This document shows, piece after piece, positions 3,708 through 29,969 of a DNA stretch of 33,243 nucleotides (positions are counted from its first letter, which is position 1; every line of letters begins with the position of its first letter). The notes under the pieces were generated by a model. The model worked only from the letters and a program-made list of their open reading frames with translations. It did no database searches and was not told the DNA's origin. The DNA is from a virus. The stretch is taken from positions 1-33,243 of the IMG/VR virus record IMGVR_UViG_3300045988_135825; one strand, written 5' to 3'. The translations under genes and the position numbers were made by a program.

Positions 3708-6700
3708 ATGAATGGAGGAGAAGTCATCTTCAAGTTTAAAGGAGATGATAAAGACCTAGAAAAAAAGACTAATGGTGTCACTGGTAAATTGAAAGCGAGT
3801 ACTGTTGCTCTTGGTAATTTAATGTCTAGTGCTATTGAAAAAGTCGGCAGTTCTTTGTTAGGACTTGGCAAAGATGCCTTGCAAGGTGTTGCTGATTTAG
3901 AGCAGAATATAGGTGGTGTTGAGACACTTTTCAAAGATAGTGCTGATACAGTTATAGAGAACTCTAAAAAAGCCTATACAACAGCGGGAATAGATGCTAA
4001 TAAGTATATGGAGCAAATAACTTCATTTAGTGCTAGTTTATTACAAAGCCTAGGTGGGGATACTGCAGAGGCAGCCAAAGTTGGTGATATGGCTATTCAA
4101 GACATGGCGGATTAACAAAATAGTCCGAGTTAAACGCATTGAACCTTATCAAGGGTGTGTAGTGTAAACTATGCTAACGGTGAAACTCCTAACGTGAAGT
4201 CGAGGACAATACCGTGGTAAGCCTATGAAAATAGGAAACTGTAACGACTATTCCGAAAGGAAGTAGAATTATTATTGATACATAATTCGAAGTGGTGCGA
4301 TTGACATAAATACAAATTTATGGTATAATACTACCAAATAAAAGGAGGATTATACTGATGTGGAAAGATATAAAAGGATATGAAGAAATATATAAAATTT
4401 CTGATACAGGAGAAATATGGAGCAAGGATAGATGGTGCATTGATAAAAAAGGACGCAAAAGATTTAGAAAAGGAATGAAATTAAGCCCAGATATTGCTTC
4501 AAATGGTTATTATAGAATTACTTTTTCTAAAAATGGCAAAAAGGTACAAAAATATTTGCATAGATTAATTGCTGAATATTTTATACCTAATCCAAATAAT
4601 TATCCACAAGTAAATCATAAAGATGGAAATAAGTTAAATTGTAATATAAAAAACCTTGAGTGGGTTACAAATCAAGATAATATAATTCATGCTTATAAAA
4701 ATGGACTTATTAATCATGTTAGAGGAATTAATCATCCGAATTATGGTTTATGTGGTGGGAAAAGCAAAAAAGCAAAAAAAATAATCGCTAAGAATATAAT
4801 AACTGGCGAAACAAAAATTTATGATGCAATGATAGAAGCAAAAAAAGATGGATTTTTACCATCAGAGATTTCTAGATGTTGCAATCATGGAGGAACACAT
4901 CATGGATACGTATTTGAGTTAATATGAGATAGTCTACTCCCCTAATAAATATCGGGAAACCGAGGGTATTAAAGGAATTCAAACAAGTTTGGTACCGCAA
5001 TAGAAAACATTCAAAATGCTTATCAAGGCTTCGCTAAGCAGAATTATACGATAAAATCAATGTCTACTTAATTAGTGATAATTAAGTAAGTGTATGTGAA
5101 CTTTATCAAGGGTGTGAGATTAAAATATAAGTAGGAAATGACTTGTTGAGATAATCTTGCTAACTGGGGAAACCTAAGTCAAAAGATATGGTTATCCAGT
5201 GCCAAGCCTAGAAATAGGAAGGTCAAACGACTATGAGTTCGTTACTCAGTACAATATCTATTGATACGATATTGGAAGTGCATACTATCTCAAATGAGAT
5301 AAAGATATAGTCTAATCCCACTTTTAAATAAGTGTTAAAGTACTAGGAAACTAGGGGTATAAATGGTTAGATAATTTAAAACTCGGTTGAAAGACCATAG
5401 CCGAGTATAAACCGAAGAATTAAACTGGAAGCCCATCAAAAAAAGGGTAATCAGAACCGAAGGCTATACAAAGTATAGTCAGGGGCAACGCATAGAGGTT
5501 GAAAAGATATAATACCTCCACGAGGCTTCGGAACTTTATATAAGTTAAAAGATATGCTGAACTATATAGATGATAAATATATAGAAATAAAAGATAAAAA
5601 ACTTTTATGTTAACAAGTGTATGGTGGCACAAAAACAGAAATGGAAAGATTACTTGCTGATGCTGAAAAGATATCAGGAGTACATTATGACATTTCTAAT
5701 TTAAATGATGTATTTAATGCTATTCATGTAATTCAAGAAGAATTAGATGTAACAGGAACGACAGCAAAAGAAGCCTCTACTACTATAAGTGGTTCAATAA
5801 ATAGTGCTAAGTCAGCATTTAGTAATTTCCTAAGTGGTGCAGGTGGAATTGAAGAAGTAATAAGTACCTTTACTACTGCTGGAACAAACATATCAAATGC
5901 GATAGTAAAAATGGCACCTCAAATAATAACTGGTTTAACTACTTTATTGAATAATCTAGTACCTTTAATTGGCCCTTTACTTCAAGCGATATTACCAGCA
6001 TTGATACAAGGAACTTCAACATTAATAATGGGACTAGTTCAAGCATTGCCTGGTATTATTCAAATATTAATGGGTATGTTGCCTACTATAATTCAAGAAT
6101 TAGCAAATATGCTACCAGTTATACTTACTTCATTAATTCAAGGGTTAGTTATGATTATTCAAGAGTTGGCTAATCAATTACCTACATTGATACCAGTTAT
6201 AATAGATGCTATTCTTAGCACTATACCTATCTTAATTGATAATTTGCCTTTATTTATAGAGGCTGGTTTCAAATTACTAGGTGGCTTAATTGCTGGTATA
6301 TTAAATGCTCTTCCAATATTGCTAGCCAGAGCAGGAGAAATCGTTGTTGATTTAGTTGAATATTTCAAAGGAATGCCTAAGATGATGTGGGATTGTGGTA
6401 AAAATTTAATACAAGGCCTTTGGAATGGTATTAAGTCTGCTAAAGATTGGGTACTTGACAAGATAGCAGGTATAGGTAATTCAATAATGAAAAAAATCAA
6501 AGGAATATTTGGAGTACATAGCCCATCAACAGAGTTTGCATGGGTTGGTAAGATGAATATGCTAGGTTTAGAAAAAGGTATGGAAGATATGAAAGGACAA
6601 GTTAATTCAACAGTCGGAGGAATGTTTGATGATATGTTTAGTTTATCGCCTAGCCTATATGGAAGTTCAGGTACTAATTTAAGTCCACAAGTTAATGTAG

Positions 6701-6810
6701 TAGTAAATAACAATATGGAGCAAGACCCATTAGGACAAATGGTTAATAATATTAAGACATTTAGCGGTGGCTCTAAAAATGACTATAATTATGGAATGGG
6801 AGGAGCATAG
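3708..6810 (+). CDS. Tail tape measure protein, split gene: join(3708..4112, 4976..5052, 5366..5387, 5620..6810), 564 aa after splicing
   Basis: Exon 1 ends ...GDMAIQDMAD. A 77-nt exon encodes NSNKFGTAIENIQNAYQGFAKQNYT plus 'at'. A 22-nt exon supplies 'g' plus LDNLKLG. Exon 4 starts YGGTKTEMERLL. Joined, these rebuild the motif DMADN..K.G....IQNAYQGFAKQNYTMLDNLKLGYGGTKTEM, conserved in tape measures of Firmicute phages. Exon lengths 405+77+22+1188 = 1692 nt, divisible by 3. The C-terminal two thirds are hydrophobic and helical, typical of tape measures. Confidence 0.85.
4301..4329 (+). promoter_or_regulatory. Sigma-A-type promoter inside intron 1, driving the homing endonuclease ORF
   Basis: TTGACA (4301-4306), 17-nt spacer, TGgTATAAT (4321-4329). 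RBS aaaggagg lies before the ATG at 4358. Confidence 0.6.
4358..4927 (+). CDS. Intron-encoded HNH homing endonuclease (NUMOD4-like N-terminus plus HNH_3-type core)
   Basis: N-terminus MWKDIKGYEEIYKISDTGEIWS. Core motif VNHKDGNKLNCNIKNLEWVTNQDN. The ORF sits in a peripheral loop of intron 1 and its stop codon overlaps the 3' intron core (tgagatagtc). Confidence 0.85.
   Translation: MWKDIKGYEEIYKISDTGEIWSKDRWCIDKKGRKRFRKGMKLSPDIASNGYYRITFSKNGKKVQKYLHRLIAEYFIPNPNNYPQVNHKDGNKLNCNIKNLEWVTNQDNIIHAYKNGLINHVRGINHPNYGLCGGKSKKAKKIIAKNIITGETKIYDAMIEAKKDGFLPSEISRCCNHGGTHHGYVFELI
5053..5365 (+). mobile_element. Group I intron 2 in the tape measure gene (313 nt, ORF-less paralogue of intron 1)
   Basis: Shares blocks with intron 1: ttatcaagggtgtg, gctaac.g.gaaac.cctaa, aagccta.aaataggaa, aacgactat, atagtcta.tccc, ggaaac...ggggtat.aaa.g. 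Begins after U5052 and ends in G5365. Only these splice points give an in-frame ATG codon (at+g) and the TMLDNLKLG motif. Confidence 0.75.
5388..5619 (+). mobile_element. Group I-like intron 3 in the tape measure gene (232 nt, unrelated in sequence to introns 1 and 2)
   Basis: The 5' splice site follows U5387. A 6-bp P1 pairs ctcggU (5382-5387) with Gccgag (5400-5405), with a U-G wobble. The intron ends in G5619. Splicing joins ...LKLG to YGGTKTEM in frame. The class assignment was not verified by folding. Confidence 0.65.
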
Positions 6811-10260: not shown

Positions 10261-10829
10261 ATGGCTAAAATAACATTTGAAGACAAAGTGGCATTAAATG
10301 TTAATTCTGATATAGCAGATGTAAATAAGGTAAATGATAGTGATATGAACGAAATAAAAAATGTAGTTAATACAAATGATGATAACACTACTAATAATTA
10401 AATGCAATAGGAAATTTATCAAGTTTAAATACTACCAATAAAAATAATTTAGTAAGTGCAATAAATGAAGTTAATGATAATGATGTATTAAAAGGAACAT
10501 ATTCTACTAATGAAACAAGAATAGGAACTTGGATGGGAAAGCCATTATACAGAAAAGTATTAAGCACTATTGGACTTGCTGGTGAAACAAAAAAAGCAAT
10601 CGCTTACAATATAACAAACCCAGACAAAATCTGGATAGTTGGTGGTTTTGCATATTCTGACCGAAGAGTAGAAACATTGCCAATGGTTGGTTATAATGGC
10701 GATTTATCACAAAAAATTGATGTGTGGGTAGAAACAATAGAAAATGCAGTCAAATTATATTCTAATGGAGGTTGGGGTAATGATTGGACTTTCTATGTAA
10801 TTATAAATTATACAAAAACAACAGATTAA
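10261..10829 (+). pseudogene. Tail fibre / receptor-binding protein interrupted by a single-base frame disruption near 10398-10401
   Basis: Part 1 (10261..10401) encodes MAKITFEDKVALNVNSDIADVNKVNDSDMNEIKNVVNTNDDNTTNN then a stop. The -1 frame opens at 10398 and reads LNAIGNLSSLNTTNKNNLVSAINEV...TRIGTWMGKPLYRKV... to 10829. Both halves resemble one fibre family. One extra T in the TT at 10398-10399 would fuse them. Confidence 0.6.
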
Positions 10830-19356: not shown

Positions 19357-19529
19357 TGGAAGAATTAATTATATTAAGTATATTTACTATGTCAGTTTTA
19401 GTGTATGAATTAGTTAAAACAAAAAAAGAAAATAAAATTCTTTATAACAATTATCAAACAGCATTGAAAATATTATCAGAATATGACCCTAAATTAAAAG
19501 AATATTTAGAAAGGGAGAATAAAATATAA
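19356..19529 (+). CDS. Hypothetical small membrane protein (57 aa, start corrected)
   Basis: ATG at 19356 follows ggagggaaat. TM segment LIILSIFTMSVLVYELV. Confidence 0.45.
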   Translation: MEELIILSIFTMSVLVYELVKTKKENKILYNNYQTALKILSEYDPKLKEYLERENKI

Positions 19530-20086
19530 TGACACAAAATGAAATATGGAAAGATATTCCAGGATACGAAGGTTTTTATCAAGCAAGTAATTTAGGGCGA
19601 ATAAAAAATTTATTGCTCTACAATAATAGATATAAAAAGTATAGTAAGAGAGAAAAGGTTTTAAAAACAACAACACAAAAAACTGGTTATTTAATGTTAA
19701 CGTTGTGTAAAGATAAGAAAAAAAGCAATTTGCTTGTTCATAGAATAATTGCAAAAACCTTTTTATCTAATCCAAATAATTATCCACAAGTAAATCATAA
19801 AGATGGAAACAAAAAGAATAATTGTGTTGATAATTTAGAATGGTGTACTTCTAAACAAAATAACAAACATGCTTTTGATACAGGACTAAACAAATATAAT
19901 CATGCTTTTGATAATTATCATTTTACTAAAAAAGTTGGGCAATATGATTTAAATGACAATTTTATAAAAGAATTTGATAGCATAACGAAAGCCTCAGTCG
20001 AAACAAACACACTTGTTCAAAATATTTGTAAAGTTTGCAAAGGAAAGCGAAAAAAAGCAGGAGGATATATTTGGAAATATCTTTAA
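19529..20086 (+). CDS. Free-standing HNH homing endonuclease (NUMOD4 plus HNH_3), paralogue of the intron-encoded enzyme
   Basis: N-terminus EIWKDIPGYEGFYQASNLGRIKN. Core motif VNHKDGNKKNNCVDNLEWCTSKQN. Shares 43 identical nt with the ORF at 4358-4927. Confidence 0.85.
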   Translation: MTQNEIWKDIPGYEGFYQASNLGRIKNLLLYNNRYKKYSKREKVLKTTTQKTGYLMLTLCKDKKKSNLLVHRIIAKTFLSNPNNYPQVNHKDGNKKNNCVDNLEWCTSKQNNKHAFDTGLNKYNHAFDNYHFTKKVGQYDLNDNFIKEFDSITKASVETNTLVQNICKVCKGKRKKAGGYIWKYL

Positions 20087-20118: not shown

Positions 20119-20319
20119 ATGTATAGATTTAAAAAAGAAAAATTTGATAAAATAAAATTAAATCAAGCAAAAATAGCAGAAGAAGTTGGAATAACTAGAC
20201 AGTATATGAATAGTATATATAATCAAGCAACATTATGCAAAAAAACAACAGCATATGCCATAACAAAAAGCATAGATAATAATGCTGAAATAAAAGATTT
20301 TTTTGAAGAGGCAAAATGA
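20119..20319 (+). CDS. Helix-turn-helix DNA-binding protein (66 aa)
   Basis: LNQAKIAEEVGITRQYMNSIYN is a classic HTH pattern. Confidence 0.55.
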   Translation: MYRFKKEKFDKIKLNQAKIAEEVGITRQYMNSIYNQATLCKKTTAYAITKSIDNNAEIKDFFEEAK

Positions 20320-20828
20320 TGAGTATAAGAAGTCAATGGTGTGAGTTTGATAAAGAAACAAGAAAATACATAAAGAAAAGAGATAATAATAGGTGTATCT
20401 TTTGTGGAAATAATGGAGCATTACAAATAGCACATATATTCTTATCAAGGGCGAAAGGTGGAAAAGGTTGCAAAGAAAATGGAGTTATGTTATGTATTAA
20501 ATGCCATCAAGCATTAGATAATGGCAAAAATACATCATTAAGATACCAAATAAGCCAATTTTGTAGGTCATATTTAATTAAAAAAGAAAACATAATAGAT
20601 TTATGTAGTTTGATGAAAACACTTAAATATGATAAAAAAAATAGCCTTAGAGAAAGAATTATAATATCAGAAGAGAAAAAAGAAATAAAAGATAGATGTA
20701 AAAATTGCAGATTATTAGAAAAAAGGCAAGTAAAAGGTAATTCAATACCTACATATTATTGTAGATACAGAAAAATAAGAATAACAAAAAATACAGAGGC
20801 TTGCAAAGATTTTAGGAGGATAAAATGA
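20316..20828 (+). CDS. HNH nuclease-domain protein with additional C-terminal Cys pairs
   Basis: CIFCG...LQIAHIF...GG...NGVMLCIKCHQALDNG is an HNHc pattern. A CKNC motif occurs later in the protein. Confidence 0.6.
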   Translation: MMSIRSQWCEFDKETRKYIKKRDNNRCIFCGNNGALQIAHIFLSRAKGGKGCKENGVMLCIKCHQALDNGKNTSLRYQISQFCRSYLIKKENIIDLCSLMKTLKYDKKNSLRERIIISEEKKEIKDRCKNCRLLEKRQVKGNSIPTYYCRYRKIRITKNTEACKDFRRIK

Positions 20829-24793: not shown

Positions 24794-25292
24794 AAATATA
24801 GATGAGTTAATACCTTATGAAAATAATCCTCGTTTAAATGATGAAGCGGTTGAATATGTTAAAAATTCAATTAAAGAATTTGGGTTTAAAGTACCTGTTG
24901 TAATAGACAAAGATAATGTTATAATTGCAGGACATACACGAATAAAAGCAAGTAAAGAATTAGGAATAAAAGATATTCCTTGTATAATTGCCGATGACTT
25001 AACTGAAGAGCAAGTAAAAGCATTTAGATTGGCAGATAATAAAGTTGCTGAAAAATCAATATGGGACTATTCAAAACTAGATGAAGAATTAGATAGTATT
25101 TTAGATATTGATATGAGTATGTTTGATTTTAATATTAATACCGATGATGTTGAAATTGAAAGAATAGATTTATCTAATAAAGAATTTGAAAAATATGAAA
25201 TAATAATTACTTGCCAAAATGAAATTGAATTAGAAGAAAAATATAATAAATTGATGAAAGAAGGATATGAATGCAAAATTTCAACATATTAA
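24777..25292 (+). CDS. ParB N-terminal-domain (ParB/Srx-like nuclease domain) protein (start corrected)
   Basis: IDELIPYENNPRLNDEAVEYVKNSIKEFGFKVPVVIDKDNVIIAGHTRIKASKELG and EEQVKAFRLADN are hallmark ParBc motifs. Confidence 0.75.
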   Translation: MEIIYKNIDELIPYENNPRLNDEAVEYVKNSIKEFGFKVPVVIDKDNVIIAGHTRIKASKELGIKDIPCIIADDLTEEQVKAFRLADNKVAEKSIWDYSKLDEELDSILDIDMSMFDFNINTDDVEIERIDLSNKEFEKYEIIITCQNEIELEEKYNKLMKEGYECKISTY

Positions 25293-26328
25293 AAGAAAAT
25301 AAAGTTGACAAAACATTTAGAGTAGCAAAAATAATGAATGATTTTGATGTAAAAATTGAACACTCGAATGAAAATTTTATTGGAACTATAGATTTACCAA
25401 AAATATGGAATATTGGATTAATTGTTGGTAATAGTGGAACTGGCAAATCAACTATCGCTAAAGAAATATTTAAAAATGAATATATAAATAATTTTGAATA
25501 TAATCATAAAAGTGTTATAGATGATATGCCACAATCAAAAACAATAGAAGAAATAGAAAAAATGTTTTATACAGTTGGTTTTGGAAGTGTTCCTAGTTGG
25601 CTTAAACCTTATAAAGTTTTATCAAATGGTGAAAAAATGAGAGTTGATTTGGCAAGAGCATTATTAGAAAATGATAAAATATGTTTTGATGAATTTACAT
25701 CTGTAGTTGATAGAAACGTAGCTCAAACAATGTGTATAGCAACAAATAAAACAATAAAAAAATTAAATAAACAATTTATAGCAGTTAGTTGTCATTATGA
25801 CATTATAGAGTGGCTTCAACCAGATTGGATTTTTGATACAAATGTGATGAAAATGGTCCCCTATCAAGCCCACGAAGAAAAAAAGAATTTAATATTAAAA
25901 AATGCGAACGAAGTGAGTGGGCAAAATTTAGGAAATATCATTATTTAAGCAATAATTTAGCTGATTGTTGTGTATGTTATGGATTATATGATGAAGAAAA
26001 AATAATTGGATTTATTGCTATTATACATCACCCTCATCCTATAAATAAAAAATTAAAAAGAGTAAGTAGATTAGTAATATTACCAGATTATCAAGGAATA
26101 GGTTTAGGGACAAAATTTTTAAATTTCATAGCTGAATATTATAAAAAACAAAATTTTGATTTTGGAATTGTAACAAGTGCTAAAAATTTAATTTCAAGTT
26201 TAAAAAAATCTGAAAAATGGTGTTTATATAGATATAATAAAAAATCTAAATGTATTAGTAAAAATAGTAAAATTGATAAAAATAGAAAATTAAGAGATTG
26301 CATAACAGCGAGCTTTATGTTTAAATAA
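25271..26328 (+). CDS. ABC-type ATPase / GNAT acetyltransferase two-domain protein requiring a -1 shift at 25879-25885: join(25271..25885, 25885..26328)
   Basis: Walker A GNSGTGKST, ABC signature-like LSNGEKMR, Walker B ICFDEFTS. The zero frame stops at 25946-25948. The -1 frame is open for about 160 codons with no usable in-frame start before the last few codons and encodes EWAKFRKYHYLS...RLVILPDYQGIGLGTKFL, a GNAT Q/RxxGxG-type motif. Confidence 0.6.
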
Positions 26329-26358
26329 TTAAAGGCAAAATAAAAAGGAAGTGATATT

Positions 26359-26745
26359 ATGGTAAAAGGAGATACACCAGCACAGGATAAAATTGATAAG
26401 AAACAATTTGAAAGCTTATGCGGGCTTCAATGTACTTTATTAGAAATATGTGATTTCTTTGATGTTGAAGATGACACTTTAAATAGTTGGTGCAAGAAAA
26501 CTTATGGTACTACATTTTCGGAAGTATTCAAGATAAAAAGAGGCAAAGGTCAAATATCACTTCGTAGAACTCAATGGAAATTAGCAGAAAAAAATCCTAC
26601 AATGGCTATATTTCTAGGAAAACAATATCTAGGACAAACTGATAAAGTTGAAACAACAGGAGAAATGAGAGTAATGCCTACTATTAAAATGGAAGTGGTA
26701 GATAATAGTAAATTGGAGAGTGTATTATATGATAATAAAGAATAA
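26359..26745 (+). CDS. terS: Terminase small subunit
   Basis: RBS aaaggaagtg. LCGLQCTLLEICDFFDVEDDTLNSW (HTH) and ISLRRTQWKLAEKNPTMAIFLGKQYLGQTD resemble a small-terminase family common in Firmicute phages. Confidence 0.6.
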   Translation: MVKGDTPAQDKIDKKQFESLCGLQCTLLEICDFFDVEDDTLNSWCKKTYGTTFSEVFKIKRGKGQISLRRTQWKLAEKNPTMAIFLGKQYLGQTDKVETTGEMRVMPTIKMEVVDNSKLESVLYDNKE

Positions 26746-26906: not shown

Positions 26907-27179
26907 ATGATGAAATATTTGGGTAGAGAATTAAAAACTAATGAACACGTTCATCATATAAATGAAAATAAATTGGACAATAGAATAGAAAATTTGATGT
27001 TATTAACTGCTTCTGAACATAAAAGATTACATTGCTTAAAAAACAAGCATATGATTATTTGCAAATTATGCGGTGAAGAAAAAGAAAATAAAGGTAGAAA
27101 TCTTTGCAGAAATTGTTATGCAAAAGAATTAAGAAAAGGAAATTTGTTTAAATATGAAAGAATATACAAGAAAAAATAA
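26907..27179 (+). CDS. HNH endonuclease (short, terminase-associated type) with a C-terminal CxxC...CxxC
   Basis: EHVHHINENKLDNRIENLMLLTASEHKRLH. CKLCG and CRNC motifs. Located between terS and terL, as in HK97-type cos phages. Confidence 0.75.
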   Translation: MMKYLGRELKTNEHVHHINENKLDNRIENLMLLTASEHKRLHCLKNKHMIICKLCGEEKENKGRNLCRNCYAKELRKGNLFKYERIYKKK

Positions 27180-27516
27180 GTATAAAAACGAAATAACATA
27201 TTATAAAGATATAAGATTTTCAAGTAAAAAAGAAATGCGAAGATACATCATTTTAAAACAACTAGAAAAAGCAGGAATAATAAAAGAATTAGAACTACAA
27301 CCAAAGTTCTTATTATTAGATACAATTCATTATAGAGGCAAGACATACCCTAAAACTTATTATAAAGCCGATTTTAAGTATTTTGATAATGAAAAAGGCA
27401 AATATATAGTCGAAGATGTTAAAAGCCCTATAACAGCAAAAGACAAGGTATATAGGCTTAAAATAAAAATGTTATTAACAAAATATCCTGATATAGAATT
27501 TGTGGAAGTAATATAA
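27154..27516 (+). CDS. DUF1064-family protein (putative structure-specific nuclease)
   Basis: RFSSKKEMRRYIILKQLEKAGIIKELELQPKF...YKADFKY...IVEDVKS...YRLKIK matches the DUF1064 pattern. Confidence 0.6.
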   Translation: MKEYTRKNKYKNEITYYKDIRFSSKKEMRRYIILKQLEKAGIIKELELQPKFLLLDTIHYRGKTYPKTYYKADFKYFDNEKGKYIVEDVKSPITAKDKVYRLKIKMLLTKYPDIEFVEVI

Positions 27517-28159
27517 AATAATTATAAAAATCCGGGGGCTACTCTGGGCGACCTTATGAGTGGATAATAGGCTGTCAACCTAAAATTGAATGGTGGTTCG
27601 AGCCCACCCACTTGCTAAAGACATAATAATTAAATATAATTTGACACATTAGAAAGATTATTGTTGTTGATAGTGTATGTGAAGTGTATTTGGATAACAT
27701 ACCCCCCGCCATAAATGAATTATAATACTACCTTATAGGTAGTATACTGATGATATATAAAAAAACGAGTGAGGAAAGGTTTTTATTCTAGGCTTGTTTT
27801 CCATGAGTAGTTTGAATCTATAGAAATCCATTATATCATCAGTATAGTGCTTATAAGAAATATATAAAAGACCGTACCGAGTTTAACATATTAAGTTATG
27901 GTTTAAAAAGTCTCGGAAGAAGTTACTGACTGAAAAAACTAAAACGCAAGGTTTGGTTGACCTTTATATTGATTATAAGCACTACTAAACCAAACCCCTT
28001 TATAAGTACTGCTATTACGCAGTACACTGATAATATGGAAGTGTAGGTTAGGTTCGCCAATGCGGTACTATATTTCTAACAGGCTAACTACTTTAGAAAA
28101 CTAGACATATTATTAGTGTAGTGTTTAATAACACTAGAAAGAAAAAGGAGGTGTCAGAA
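27517..28159 (+). ncRNA. About 640-nt ORF-free, highly base-paired region: candidate large structured ncRNA (ROOL/GOLLD-like class), possibly also containing cos
   Basis: No ORF of 60 aa or more on the + strand. Nested long-range perfect helices: 27746-27757 with 27832-27843, and 27845-27856 with 27973-27984. Hairpins at 27725-27745 and 28006-28025. Pseudoknot-type pairing 27950-27958 with 27988-27996. GC-rich islands in an AT-rich genome. Confidence 0.5.
27533..27711 (+). other. GC-rich tRNA-like element: 6-bp G:C closing helix, perfect T-arm consensus and 3' CCA (not a canonical tRNA)
   Basis: cggggg (27533-27538) pairs with cccccg (27703-27708) and is followed by cca. ggtgg-ttcgagc-ccacc lies at 27592-27608. 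An anticodon-like hairpin tagg-ctgtcaa-ccta lies at 27568-27582. The 5' end gggggctactctgggcgacc resembles the 5' end of tmRNA. Confidence 0.4.
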
Positions 28160-28402
28160 ATGGCAAAAAAAAGTAACACTGGAAAGAAAAAGGTTGATGT
28201 TATTAGTTTAGATAATAAGCCAGTTAACCCACAAGTCCAAGAAGAGAAAGTAGAAGTACCTGCTAAGTTTGTTAAGGCTATGCCTAACATTCCGAAAACA
28301 GCGGAAAGTAAAATCAAATTAAATAATGGAAGAGTATATAAAGACTTAGGCAATGGCTATGGTATGTATTCTGACAATGGACAAGTATTTAGACTTAAAT
28401 AG
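28160..28402 (+). CDS. Hypothetical Lys-rich protein (80 aa, start corrected)
   Basis: ATG at 28160 follows aaaaggaggtg. Confidence 0.5.
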   Translation: MAKKSNTGKKKVDVISLDNKPVNPQVQEEKVEVPAKFVKAMPNIPKTAESKIKLNNGRVYKDLGNGYGMYSDNGQVFRLK

Positions 28403-28411
28403 GAGGTAAAT

Positions 28412-28648
28412 ATGGAGTTTATTAAATTGAGAGAAGATAGATATTTAATCAAAGACAGCAATGGCTTGATTGTATCTAACGAAGAGAAACTAAAATTAGA
28501 AAAGAAAGAATTAATCATTAAAGATATAGAAAGCAATGAGTGTCAAGGAAAGACCACTCAAAGAATTGAAGAAATAGATAGGGAGTTGGAAAATGGAAAC
28601 AAGTCTAAATCTAACACTATCAAAAAAGCAAAGCCAACTACTAAATGA
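28412..28648 (+). CDS. Hypothetical protein (78 aa) overlapping the terL start
   Basis: RBS taggaggt. Confidence 0.5.
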   Translation: MEFIKLREDRYLIKDSNGLIVSNEEKLKLEKKELIIKDIESNECQGKTTQRIEEIDRELENGNKSKSNTIKKAKPTTK

Positions 28649-29969
28649 TATAATTAGCCCTAATCTAACTGAAATATATGTGTTAGGAAGTACGCAAAGT
28701 GGTAAGACTTTTGATATATGTTTAGGGTGTATCTTATATGCACAAGCCTTATATAATTATAACCCAAAAGAAACCTACTTTGGCTCTATAACAGGTTGGA
28801 GTTTAGAGACATTAAAAGGTAACATCTTAGAACCTTTAAAAAAGTTTCTAGATGATATGAAATTAGAAAAAGGAAGAGATTATATATTAAGGTGGCAGAC
28901 TGATGAAAAGTATCTAGAGATATACAATATCAGATATTATTTCTTTGGTTTTAATAATGTTCTTGCATTCAACAAAATATTAGGTAAACCTTTGATATTT
29001 GAATGGATAGATGAAAGTGCTAGAATATATTCACAAGATAATTTAAGAGAGCCATTTAATGAATTTCCTGGTAGACAAGTATCTTATGCAGACCATCCTT
29101 ATTTAAAGACCATACATTCATTCAATGTTGAGGGTGGAGAAAATCACCCATACAAGATTGATTATATAGATAAGAAGCCTTATGCTAAGCATTATTCTTT
29201 CTTTCCTTATGACAACCCTAAGATAAAAACAGAAGAAGCAATGCGAAAGGTATTAGAAATGTTTCCACCCGGAAATCTAAGAGAGCAAAAGATATTTAAT
29301 AAATGGATACTTGCAACTGGAAAAATTTTTACAACAATAAACATCATTAATGATTTAAATGACTATGCTTTCAGAGAAATAGGAATAGGAATAGACTATG
29401 GTTCAGTCCATGCGACAGCCTTTGTACCTATTGCTCTTGCTTATGATAAAGTAAATAAGAAATGGGTATTAATAAGGTTAGAATATTACTACCATAATGC
29501 TAAAGAAGAACAAGACAACCCTACAACTGAATATTTTAGCAAGCAATTAAGATTATTCTTATTGTATCTAAAAAGTGAATATGGACAAGTGCCTATTACC
29601 ACTATGGTATTAGATAGTGCCGCCGCTCATTTCCATAACAGATTAATTGCTGATAATATACCACATACATTAATAAATAAAAGTGAGGATACTGTAGTTG
29701 AGGGAGTTCAATATATGCAATCTTTGTTTTATAAGGGATATCTGCTAATATATAAACAAAAAGCGATTAAGCATATAACTGATAGTGGTGAATTAGTTTA
29801 TAGTGGTAAAGATGATGGAATGCTTGAATTAGAAAGTTATAGATATGACTTAAAGGCAAGTGCTAAAAGTGGTAAAGAAGCCTATGTAAAAGAGTTTGAT
29901 GACCATATAGATGCCTTAAGGTATATCATAATAGAATTTAAAGAAACTGATAGAGCACCAGTAGTATAA
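28593..29969 (+). CDS. terL: Terminase large subunit
   Basis: RBS agggag. Walker A VLGSTQSGKTF, Walker B-like IFEWIDES. C-terminal nuclease-like GIDYG...VLDSAA...FDDHIDALRY. Confidence 0.85.
   Translation: METSLNLTLSKKQSQLLNDIISPNLTEIYVLGSTQSGKTFDICLGCILYAQALYNYNPKETYFGSITGWSLETLKGNILEPLKKFLDDMKLEKGRDYILRWQTDEKYLEIYNIRYYFFGFNNVLAFNKILGKPLIFEWIDESARIYSQDNLREPFNEFPGRQVSYADHPYLKTIHSFNVEGGENHPYKIDYIDKKPYAKHYSFFPYDNPKIKTEEAMRKVLEMFPPGNLREQKIFNKWILATGKIFTTINIINDLNDYAFREIGIGIDYGSVHATAFVPIALAYDKVNKKWVLIRLEYYYHNAKEEQDNPTTEYFSKQLRLFLLYLKSEYGQVPITTMVLDSAAAHFHNRLIADNIPHTLINKSEDTVVEGVQYMQSLFYKGYLLIYKQKAIKHITDSGELVYSGKDDGMLELESYRYDLKASAKSGKEAYVKEFDDHIDALRYIIIEFKETDRAPVV

Follow-up and report, generated by a model that had tools for sequence, protein, structure and literature searches.

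The window analyzed here is a phage genome sequence of 33,243 nucleotides (positions 1 to 33,243 of IMG/VR record IMGVR_UViG_3300045988_135825), which contains a non-coding spacer on its + strand at positions 27517-28159, between a DUF1064 gene and a small open reading frame (ORF) that we call orfA. It heads the packaging and morphogenesis block of this phage as a composite leader, in which a variable first element is followed by two tandem RNA cassettes. Each cassette unit has the same architecture, in which a hairpin (a) is followed by a stem of 12-15 base pairs (stem b) that encloses a variable insert, termed the cargo, and then by a second hairpin (c). The cassette is a discrete module of many uncultured low-GC phages, where it is usually found between the genes of late operons. 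A preliminary description of the region, made from its letters alone, had proposed a candidate giant RNA comparable to the ROOL and GOLLD classes, and we consider with high confidence that the spacer is a modular array of RNA-level cassettes instead. For the unit itself we favor, with a probability of roughly 45% for the account as a whole, a role as a portable RNA-level cassette for processing and presenting small RNAs, the mechanism of which we infer.

The base pairings in the spacer are real and lie far beyond chance. The + strand of 27517-28159 folds with a free energy of -165.7 kcal/mol and a z-score of -6.7, and none of 20 shuffled sequences does as well (0/20); the - strand gives z = -2.95. 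As the preliminary description had noted, no long + strand ORF is present from the stop codon of the DUF1064 gene at 27516 to the ATG of orfA at 28160. The two 12-bp complementarities that it pointed out are also present, and both are longer than stated. The pairing of 27746-27757 with 27832-27843 grows to 15 bp (27743-27757 with 27832-27846) and reaches 26 nt at 88% complementarity, and that of 27845-27856 with 27973-27984 reaches 20 nt at 90%. Its recognition of a module, ‘tataa + hairpin + ACTGAT(G/A)ATAT’, at both 27721-27756 and 28001-28036, with stems linked by compensatory change, is borne out on a larger scale, since both copies are members of a single family, and the stems of this family covary in over 100 phage contigs. 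A search of the whole window confines exact matches to ACTGATRATAT to the spacer region, where the motif repeats in both orientations. Thus far our results support the earlier view of a structured, strand-specific, RNA-level non-coding phage region that adjoins a tRNA-like element.

The window holds two units, not three, at 27714-27986 (a1, b1 with its cargo and an expanded c1) and 27995-28146 (a2, b2 with its cargo and c2). Both lie on the + strand and show hairpin a, a 12-15 bp stem b with cargo and hairpin c in the sense orientation of the family. Unit 1 is matched at 27714-27872 by a covariance model of the family, called R1 (57.6 bits, E = 9e-12), and begins with hairpin a1 (ATACTACCT-TAT-AGGTAGTAT; 27725-27745), which has 9 bp at 100% complementarity. 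The 5′ strand of stem b1 (27743-27757) pairs with the 3′ strand at 27832-27846, and comparison of relatives delimits cargo 1, an insert at the tip of this stem, to 27758-27831. Two relatives (L007 and L027) have the same cargo, and three others (L001, L005 and L017) carry different inserts on the same stem. Arm c1 (27845-27984) is a hairpin c enlarged by a 100-nt insert (27865-27964) that is held by a stem of 27845-27864 with 27965-27984; the corresponding arm of L007 is a plain hairpin, AGTGCT-TATAAG-AGCACT.

Unit 2 is a divergent copy, matched by R1 at 27995-28146 with 27 bits (E = 4e-4). Sequence reading and the minimum free energy structure place hairpin a2 (GTACTGC-TATTAC-GCAGTAC) at 28006-28025. 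The strands of stem b2 at 28023-28037 and 28106-28120 form 15 bp that include one G-U, cargo 2 occupies 28038-28105 by comparison of relatives, and hairpin c2 (TAGTGTT-TAAT-AACACTA) is placed at 28119-28136 by sequence reading and folding. The unit ends 8 nt upstream of the ribosome-binding site (RBS) of orfA. Both window units keep a G-G mismatch four positions outside stem b that is conserved in the family, formed by G27742 opposite G27847 in unit 1 and by G28022 opposite G28121 in unit 2. At position 4 of stem b, unit 2 has the G-U pair that is found in 51 of 76 aligned family members, and unit 1 has a G-C pair, like 11 of these 76. Model R1 finds no match on the + strand of the window beyond units 1 and 2, and the reverse strand gives scores of 22.7 and 18.4 bits. 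A hammerhead or C/D-box reading of the CUGAUGA sequence in stem b1 was rejected, because all of its positions form Watson-Crick pairs and AGAGUAG replaces it in most of the family.

The family to which these units belong is defined by three consensus elements. Hairpin a (GCTAYC-TTTAT-AGGTAGC) is followed by two nucleotides and then by a 12-bp stem b, which has the consensus AGAGTAGATATA / TATATCTATTCT and reads ACTGATGATATA / TATATCATCAGT in the window; two nucleotides after stem b comes hairpin c (GGTGCTT-ATAA-AAGCACY), which can carry an insert. Searching IMG/VR with the pattern AGGTAGYRT-N(50-111)-ATRGTRCTTATAA returned 129 stretches from many metagenomes. This pattern does not demand pairing, and at least 9 of 11 stem-b pairs are nevertheless formed flush against both flanks in 86 of the 99 distinct matches. 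Among these 86 pattern-derived units, stem b occurs as 42 different 11-mers, and its pairs comprise 848 Watson-Crick pairs, 84 G-U pairs, 7 A-C mismatches and 7 other mismatches. The 84:7 excess of G-U over A-C makes sense only for a folded + strand. A promoter reading of the sequence GTGCTTATAAA was rejected on the basis of spacing and of the variants observed.

An alignment of 76 sequences reveals strong covariation. Stem b is 97% paired, with changes on both sides at 11 of its 12 pairs, and 149 double-change cells are observed versus 24 in shuffles, a value that none of 500 shuffles reaches (0/500); in slide controls the paired fraction of stem b drops to 28-51%. Hairpin a is likewise 97% paired across the family and exhibits compensatory variants such as GCTACC/GGTAGC, GTCGCC/GGTGGC, GCAATT/GGTTGC and GGTG/CACC. 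Model R1 was built from this alignment, which draws on phages unrelated to that of the window, and it adds units that lie outside the search pattern, these making up 52 of 106 distinct units. Sense-strand matches score about 70 bits, and antisense matches about 40 bits. Tandem arrays of two to four units are common (for example in L074, L097, L075, L120, L139, L092, L076, L140, L133 and L080), and in L028, whose TerL is only 59% identical, one unit stands alone directly before the orfA RBS, with a stem b that differs in sequence and is still complementary.

The conserved scaffold can adopt two alternative folds. Instead of forming two separate hairpins, the 3′ half of a can pair with the 5′ half of c to create a helix of about 25 bp that is continuous with stem b and is laid out as 9 bp, the G-G mismatch and 15 bp, an arrangement that is predicted and has the support of covariation. 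Three pairs lead from stem b to the mismatch. They join the last base of hairpin a and the two ‘linker’ nucleotides on one side to the three bases that directly follow stem b on the other, and they covary (CAT/ATG, CAC/GTG, CTT/AAG, CCT/AGG, CAG/CTG, CAA/TTG, TAT/ATA and TGT/ACA). A G faces a G in 104 of 106 units, and nine further pairs, several of them G-U, lie beyond it. Because the linker pairs covary and are followed by the mismatch and these nine pairs, we conclude that stem b runs on into the helix of about 25 bp.

The two-hairpin form has support of its own. A hairpin c of at least 5 bp is found in 66 of 80 units versus 13 of 80 in shuffles, and at a variable position of this hairpin A always faces T, while G faces C or T. 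Folding calculations with a tetraloop in place of the cargo give the extended form an average advantage of 4.3 kcal/mol over the hairpin form (about -34 versus about -30 kcal/mol) and favor it in 83 of 86 units. Both conformations are predicted to be stable.

Cargos are about 25-110 nt long and sit at the tip of stem b. Clustering of approximately 132 distinct cargos gives 97 groups, of which 73 are singletons. Cargos are slightly better folded than shuffles, with a mean z of -0.66, and z is below -1 for 34% of them and below -2 for 10%. In L158, stem b encloses a complete tRNA-Trp(CCA) whose CCA end is encoded, with a leader of 8 nt and a trailer of 2 nt between stem and tRNA, and tRNA-model matches are embedded in units of L133, L127 and L097. 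A T-arm hairpin occurs in 11 of 140 distinct units against a chance expectation of about 0.3, which is our own estimate and not derived from a tool. In a separate count of the 86 pattern-derived units, 10 have a T arm, and 8 of these 10 T arms end exactly where the 3′ strand of stem b starts. By analogy, a T arm abutting this strand resembles that of a tRNA with a prolonged acceptor stem. A tRNA-like cargo family of five members maintains its T stem by compensatory changes, and one and the same cargo family can be found in different stems (b-type in L005, AGAGTAG-type in L003). The cargo provides the strongest argument for a function at the level of RNA rather than duplex DNA.

Some features of individual cargos were also recorded. 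The tRNA-like family (L133 8915-9050, L140, L145, L148 and L176) includes a self-complementary palindrome that persists through sequence change (GCGTACGC, GTGCGTACGC and TGGCTAGCCA) and could be either an overly tight hairpin or a site of intermolecular dimerization. The cargo of a unit in L063 (1141-1274) has AGGAGG seven nucleotides ahead of an ATG, and the resulting frame of 13 codons would stop at the TAA in the conserved TTATAA of the scaffold, which is probably a coincidence. An antisense or guide role for the window cargos was considered and rejected, in that their complementarity to the rest of the window is no better than that of shuffles.

These characteristics suggest how such a cassette could operate. 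The unit would be transcribed with the surrounding late operon, and its scaffold would insulate the folding of the cargo and present it. The helix of about 25 bp would then be cut by a double-strand-specific endoribonuclease, most simply the RNase III of the host, and cleavage would free the cargo as a small stable RNA, be it a tRNA, a tRNA-like RNA or another structured RNA. The cut flanks could refold, so that the RNA upstream would end in hairpin a as its 3′ cap, and hairpin c would form a 5′ cap that directly precedes the RBS of the next gene. The conserved scaffold might also supply the homology by which cassettes are exchanged between phages. A switchable design and a hairpin next to an RBS fit this processing account, and some units, including unit 2 of the window, do end a few bases before an RBS.

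RNase III requires about two helical turns, and its well-known sites include the R sites of phage T7, the sites in phage SP82 transcripts that are cut by the Bacillus subtilis enzyme, and the leader-trailer stalks of rRNA precursors. The predicted extended helix has the sense-strand length of at least about 20 bp that marks an RNase III signal, and its approximately 25 bp exceed the roughly two turns that the enzyme needs. Like the T7 and SP82 signals, the cassettes are long imperfect helices on the sense strand between genes of phage operons; like the rRNA stalks, their helix is formed by sequences that flank a putative functional RNA; and, as at RNase III signals, cleavage would leave terminal hairpins on the neighboring RNAs. 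Unlike those signals, the cassette scaffold is highly conserved across unrelated phages and has an invariant G-G mismatch, switches between one long helix and two hairpins, carries a hypervariable cargo and occurs in arrays, and its cleavage is a prediction.

Several considerations count against a processing and presentation cassette. That the unit is transcribed and cut, and that a stable RNA results, is an inference. The conservation of the scaffold (AGGTAG..., GTGCTTATAA and the G-G mismatch) exceeds the known needs of RNase III, and this strong conservation with its invariant mismatch hints at a sequence-specific partner. The genes that neighbor the 103 units are structural genes, and none for a nuclease, an RNA-binding protein, a reverse transcriptase or a recombinase is recurrent among them. 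Most cargos, as reflected by the 73 singletons among 97 clusters, have no recognizable function, and clear structure is restricted to one third of them. The strand asymmetry and the G-T wobbles would equally fit hairpins of single-stranded DNA. Finally, the family was gathered with a pattern derived from the scaffold, which partly imposes the conservation of the flanks, although the 52 members found by the model alone relieve this concern in part.

A more ambitious extension of the cassette account can be put forward only tentatively, and we hold it to be possible rather than probable. It would see in these units a natural system of RNA cassettes in phages whose hosts are low-GC bacteria of gut and rumen, in which a scaffold that switches between two folds captures, displays and releases arbitrary small RNAs (tRNAs, tRNA mimics and many structured RNAs of other kinds) and is arrayed and exchanged as an RNA-gene counterpart of integron cassettes, with the G-G helix as the site of a dedicated nuclease or binding protein.

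Another explanation is that the unit acts purely in cis, as an mRNA processing or stabilizing hairpin or as a translational control element, and that the ‘cargo’ is a tolerated apical region without function. Intergenic units upstream of highly expressed late genes, and a hairpin c near the next RBS in the window and at several other loci, are what this explanation predicts. The hyperdiversity of the cargos, two thirds of which are no more structured than shuffles, agrees with it as well, as does the lack of any unit in the relative L030, which would suit an accessory tuning element. However, it does not account for complete tRNAs and conserved, covarying tRNA-like families as cargo, for the strong enrichment of T arms, or for the occurrence of one cargo family in two types of stem (L005 and L003). 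Arrays of two to four units, and units placed before terminators, would also be unexpected for the leader of one gene. An intrinsic-terminator-like hairpin follows within 70 nt or less in 20 of 103 units versus 4 of 103 random windows. We regard a purely cis-acting element as unlikely. At several loci (L062, L121, L126, L159, L163, L171 and others) a conserved terminator-like hairpin, AAGTCGRTAGAAATATCGRCTTTTTT, lies just 3′ of the units.

The manner in which units spread among phages bears on whether they are instead elements of DNA. At three pairs of loci (L131/L178, L081/L085 and L039/L089), units with 95-100% identical cargo and stems are embedded in unrelated flanks, and the identity begins at hairpin a and ends at hairpin c. 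Because identity is limited in this way, we consider the unit to be a discrete, horizontally exchanged module. Its orientation agrees with that of the flanking ORFs in 98 of 103 cases. On its upstream side the commonest neighbor is a minor head protein gene (33 loci), and on its downstream side the commonest are genes for scaffold, major capsid and large terminase proteins.

Discrete units in unrelated flanks, and the presence or absence of units among near-identical phages, would also be produced by a mobile DNA element whose hairpins fold in single-stranded DNA, such as the PATE/REP elements of IS200/IS605 or attC-like sites, and which a recombinase moves with the cargo as a passenger. In having a conserved mismatch and a variable tip, the imperfect hairpin of the unit is reminiscent of the attC sites of integrons, and the strand specificity would suit a single-strand DNA mechanism. 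Moreover, the junction revealed by comparing L017 with L018 carries an 8-9 nt direct repeat, TATAGTAC(T). This repeat need not be a target-site duplication, because it is part of the self-similarity between a and c of the scaffold. Other insertion-deletions are imprecise, as when the deletion that distinguishes L014 from L010 ends inside the L010 cargo, and such events are explained more readily by recombination via the conserved scaffold than by precise transposition.

The neighbors of about 100 units and the window ORFs scanned include no transposase, integrase or Y1/HUH gene, and no associated recombinase (IntI, TnpA or RAYT) is present in the neighbor clusters of 103 units or among these same ORFs. 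Functional-looking tRNA cargos and T arms stacked on stem b imply a constraint at the RNA level, and the orientation of the units follows transcription. The resemblance to attC and PATE/REP sequences is real with respect to strand-specific imperfect hairpins, conserved non-Watson-Crick positions and variable terminal structures, and with integron attC cassettes the units further share arrays and horizontal exchange. However, no integrase or transposase was found near the units, the variable part lies inside the hairpin and not between hairpins, the cargo is a small RNA and not a gene, orientation follows transcription and tRNA geometry is kept. A DNA-level mobile element is, in our assessment, quite improbable.

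Comparison of the spacer among relatives speaks most directly to the idea of one giant RNA. Among 20-odd IMG/VR contigs with TerL proteins 86-97% identical to that of the window, the spacer from the DUF1064 gene to orfA ranges from about 190 to about 1000 nt, and BLAST comparisons reveal a mosaic in which blocks are present, absent or replaced in varying combinations. Unit 1 is absent from two close relatives (L002 and L018). The final approximately 150 nt of the spacer are retained in most close relatives and are absent from L030, L039, L041 and L042; where present in close relatives, window positions 28012-28159, which include the 3′ part of unit 2, are 86-98% identical. The L030 spacer has no hairpin module at all. 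Because discrete modules are gained, lost and swapped among phages whose flanking genes are about 95% identical, the spacer is not a single conserved large RNA, and the earlier suggestion of a giant non-coding RNA does not stand. A separate observation concerns L015 (2569-3568; same contig as L038), in which an extra HNH homing-type gene lies at the 3′ end of the DUF1064 gene and is followed by a duplicated DUF1064 tail directly upstream of the cassette array.

Database searches also failed to place the region in the ROOL, GOLLD or HEARO class. Rfam 15 gives no match of any kind at gathering score in the window, and none to these three classes at E≤10 in 27450-28250, where only chance-level matches and a weak tRNA match appear. 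This applies to the ROOL model (RF03087), to the GOLLD model and to HEARO, the omega RNA of IscB. A HEARO RNA would adjoin an IscB-type ORF with RuvC and HNH domains, and the nearby HNH protein is a 90-amino-acid HNH_3 protein of homing type. Rfam searches of 15 close relatives gave no matches, those of 17 unit-bearing loci gave only tRNAs and one ROOL RNA, and at E≤10 a canonical three-unit array gave only one cargo tRNA match and chance-level matches to miRNA precursors. These negative results are meaningful, because the same tool detects a ROOL RNA with 147 bits in the related locus L177. This bona fide ROOL (L177 1706-2290) lies beside three tRNA genes, and the same phage contig bears a cassette unit at 10631-10783 that adjoins a tRNA-Trp gene.

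A single ornate RNA, either ROOL-like, GOLLD-like or of a new class, that folds into one particle over approximately 27517-28159 would account for the large spacer with its high + strand fold significance, its phage context, the tRNA-like element alongside and the occurrence of a ROOL RNA on a contig that has the cassette family. The likeness to ROOL and GOLLD RNAs, indeed, comprises phage context, low-GC gut or rumen-type hosts, neighboring tRNAs or tRNA-like elements and a length of several hundred nucleotides. However, ROOL RNAs keep one architecture of about 580 nt whole, whereas the relatives examined here retain only subsets of modules in spacers of 190-1000 nt. Each module folds independently, and the array is a variable concatenation of such modules that matches neither model. 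Furthermore, no long-range pairing between modules is conserved. The sole candidate is a 9-bp pairing of 27950-27958 with 27988-27996, which the preliminary description had proposed as a pseudoknot. It is exact in the sequence, but as a pseudoknot it was rejected for want of conservation in relatives. Those that lack the 5′ partner still carry the 3′ partner, which in the window is held by a linker conserved among relatives (CTAAACCAAACCCCTTTATAA; 27985-28005), and a G-to-A change in the 5′ partner of L012 would leave an A-C mismatch. We therefore consider one giant RNA to be highly improbable, and a long, ornate phage spacer beside a tRNA-like element, which tempts one to assign it to the ROOL or GOLLD type, need not be of that type.

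Equally remote is a cos/pac packaging site, or another array of sites on double-stranded DNA for terminase or late-gene regulators, which would suit a spacer between TerS-like and HNH genes and TerL with an ACTGATRATAT motif in both orientations, but which conflicts with the remoteness of the units from terminase in most phages, including 33 other loci where minor-head and scaffold genes flank them, with stems that covary instead of keeping a binding motif, with a G-U over A-C excess (84:7) that is meaningless for duplex DNA, and with the absence of unit 1 from L002 and L018 and of all units from L030.

Among described RNAs, a design close to that of the proposed cassette is known from the YrlA-type Y RNAs. 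These are modular small RNAs whose two ends pair into a long stem that bears a tRNA-like domain with T and D arms, and some of them are phage-encoded and located near tRNAs (Chen et al. 2014, PMC4201824). Unlike YrlA genes, which adjoin those for Rsr/Ro60, the units have no TROVE protein among the window ORFs scanned, a set that excludes some small ORFs. The cassettes also differ in giving no Rfam match to this class in the window or in the unit-bearing loci searched, and in that their long stem continues the position of the acceptor stem and only about 8% of their cargos are tRNA-like.

A survey of structured RNAs in IMG/VR (Fremin et al. 2023, PMC10690425) lists candidates that resemble tRNAs and others that precede terminase and capsid genes. 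That survey drew on the same data source, and the portion of its text considered here, compared by description only, contains no family made of scaffold plus cargo. Literature searches with strings of the scaffold sequence returned unrelated primers only. Searches of INPHARED (GenBank phages) with the spacer, with 13 kb of the window and with both scaffold halves gave no matches, although a low-complexity filter may mask short AT-rich queries. The unit has no Rfam family, GenBank phage match or paper identified by sequence string, and parts of it may lie within the IMG/VR catalogue of 10,006 unnamed candidates. Helices for RNA processing and modular RNAs that resemble tRNAs have been described before; what is new is a conserved, switchable scaffold with hypervariable cargo that is arrayed and exchanged, and possibly more.

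If the cassette account is correct, many uncultured phages have a hidden repertoire of small RNAs on one common scaffold. This scaffold would then serve as a search handle, and over 100 units, which carry about 100 different cargos, have already come from one pattern and one model. The account would also offer a testable model for how phages gain, express and trade tRNAs and tRNA mimics, which are candidate counter-measures against host nucleases that target tRNAs. In addition, the unit would be a natural example of a switchable scaffold that insulates folding, like the artificial ones used to express RNA aptamers.

The window represents a low-GC phage genome of about 33 kb in which all plausible genes are on the + strand. 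Upstream of the spacer are a TerS-like gene (26359-26745), a gene for the homing-type HNH_3 endonuclease of 90 amino acids (26907-27179) and the DUF1064 gene (27154-27516), whose stop codon borders the spacer. The extent of the spacer (27517-28159) was established from the ORF list, PHROG and Pfam annotation and fold z-scores. Downstream of it, the packaging and morphogenesis block begins with orfA (28160-28402; RBS AAGGAGG at 28145-28151), followed by a second small ORF, orfB (28412-28648), TerL (28593-29969) and then portal and minor head protein genes. The rest of the window encodes tail, lysis and replication functions. The closest relatives are uncultured contigs, some of them binned with metagenome-assembled genomes of gut ‘Bacilli’ or ‘Tenericutes’.

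Between the DUF1064 gene and unit 1 lies the variable first element of the spacer (27534-27706, + strand), which is closed by a GGGGG/CCCCC clamp (27534-27538 with 27702-27706) according to folding and comparison with relatives. It is 95-98% identical to its counterparts in L001, L002 and L018, and two different, unrelated elements take its place in the remaining relatives; with four near-identical copies only, its structure is not established by covariation. The element includes a tRNA-like module on the + strand (27556-27616) with a T arm (GGTGG-TTCGAGC-CCACC) and an anticodon-like loop (CU-GUC-AA). This module lacks a D arm and scores 17.9 bits against the Rfam tRNA threshold of 29, short of a cloverleaf tRNA, and ARAGORN reports no tRNA at 27556-27616. 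In L001 a G-C pair of its anticodon-like stem is replaced by A-U, a single compensatory change, and in L018 the stem is broken at one point. Right after the module, on the same strand, a match to the sigma-70-like promoter consensus (TTGCTA-17-TATAAT; 27612-27640) agrees at 10 of 12 positions and is conserved in L001, L002 and L018; it is a candidate promoter by consensus match only.

The statement in the preliminary description that this genome has almost no intergenic space was overstated, in that further gaps are present at 4928-5616 and 25949-26358. The latter, a non-coding gap of about 410 nt, separates an ABC-type ATPase-like gene (25271-25948) from the TerS-like gene. The former falls within a tape-measure gene that is apparently split into an N-terminal part (3708-4115) and a C-terminal part (5617-6810), with a gene for an HNH endonuclease (4358-4927) and, at 5092-5334, a match to the group I intron model (Rfam Intron_gpI) between them. 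This match scores 43.5 bits (E = 2.4e-9), slightly below the gathering score of 50, and the interruption is probably an intron with a homing endonuclease gene. In total, four HNH endonuclease genes are present in the 33 kb (4358-4927, 19529-20086, 20316-20828 and 26907-27179), suggesting heavy homing-endonuclease traffic that may add to the mosaicism around the spacer.

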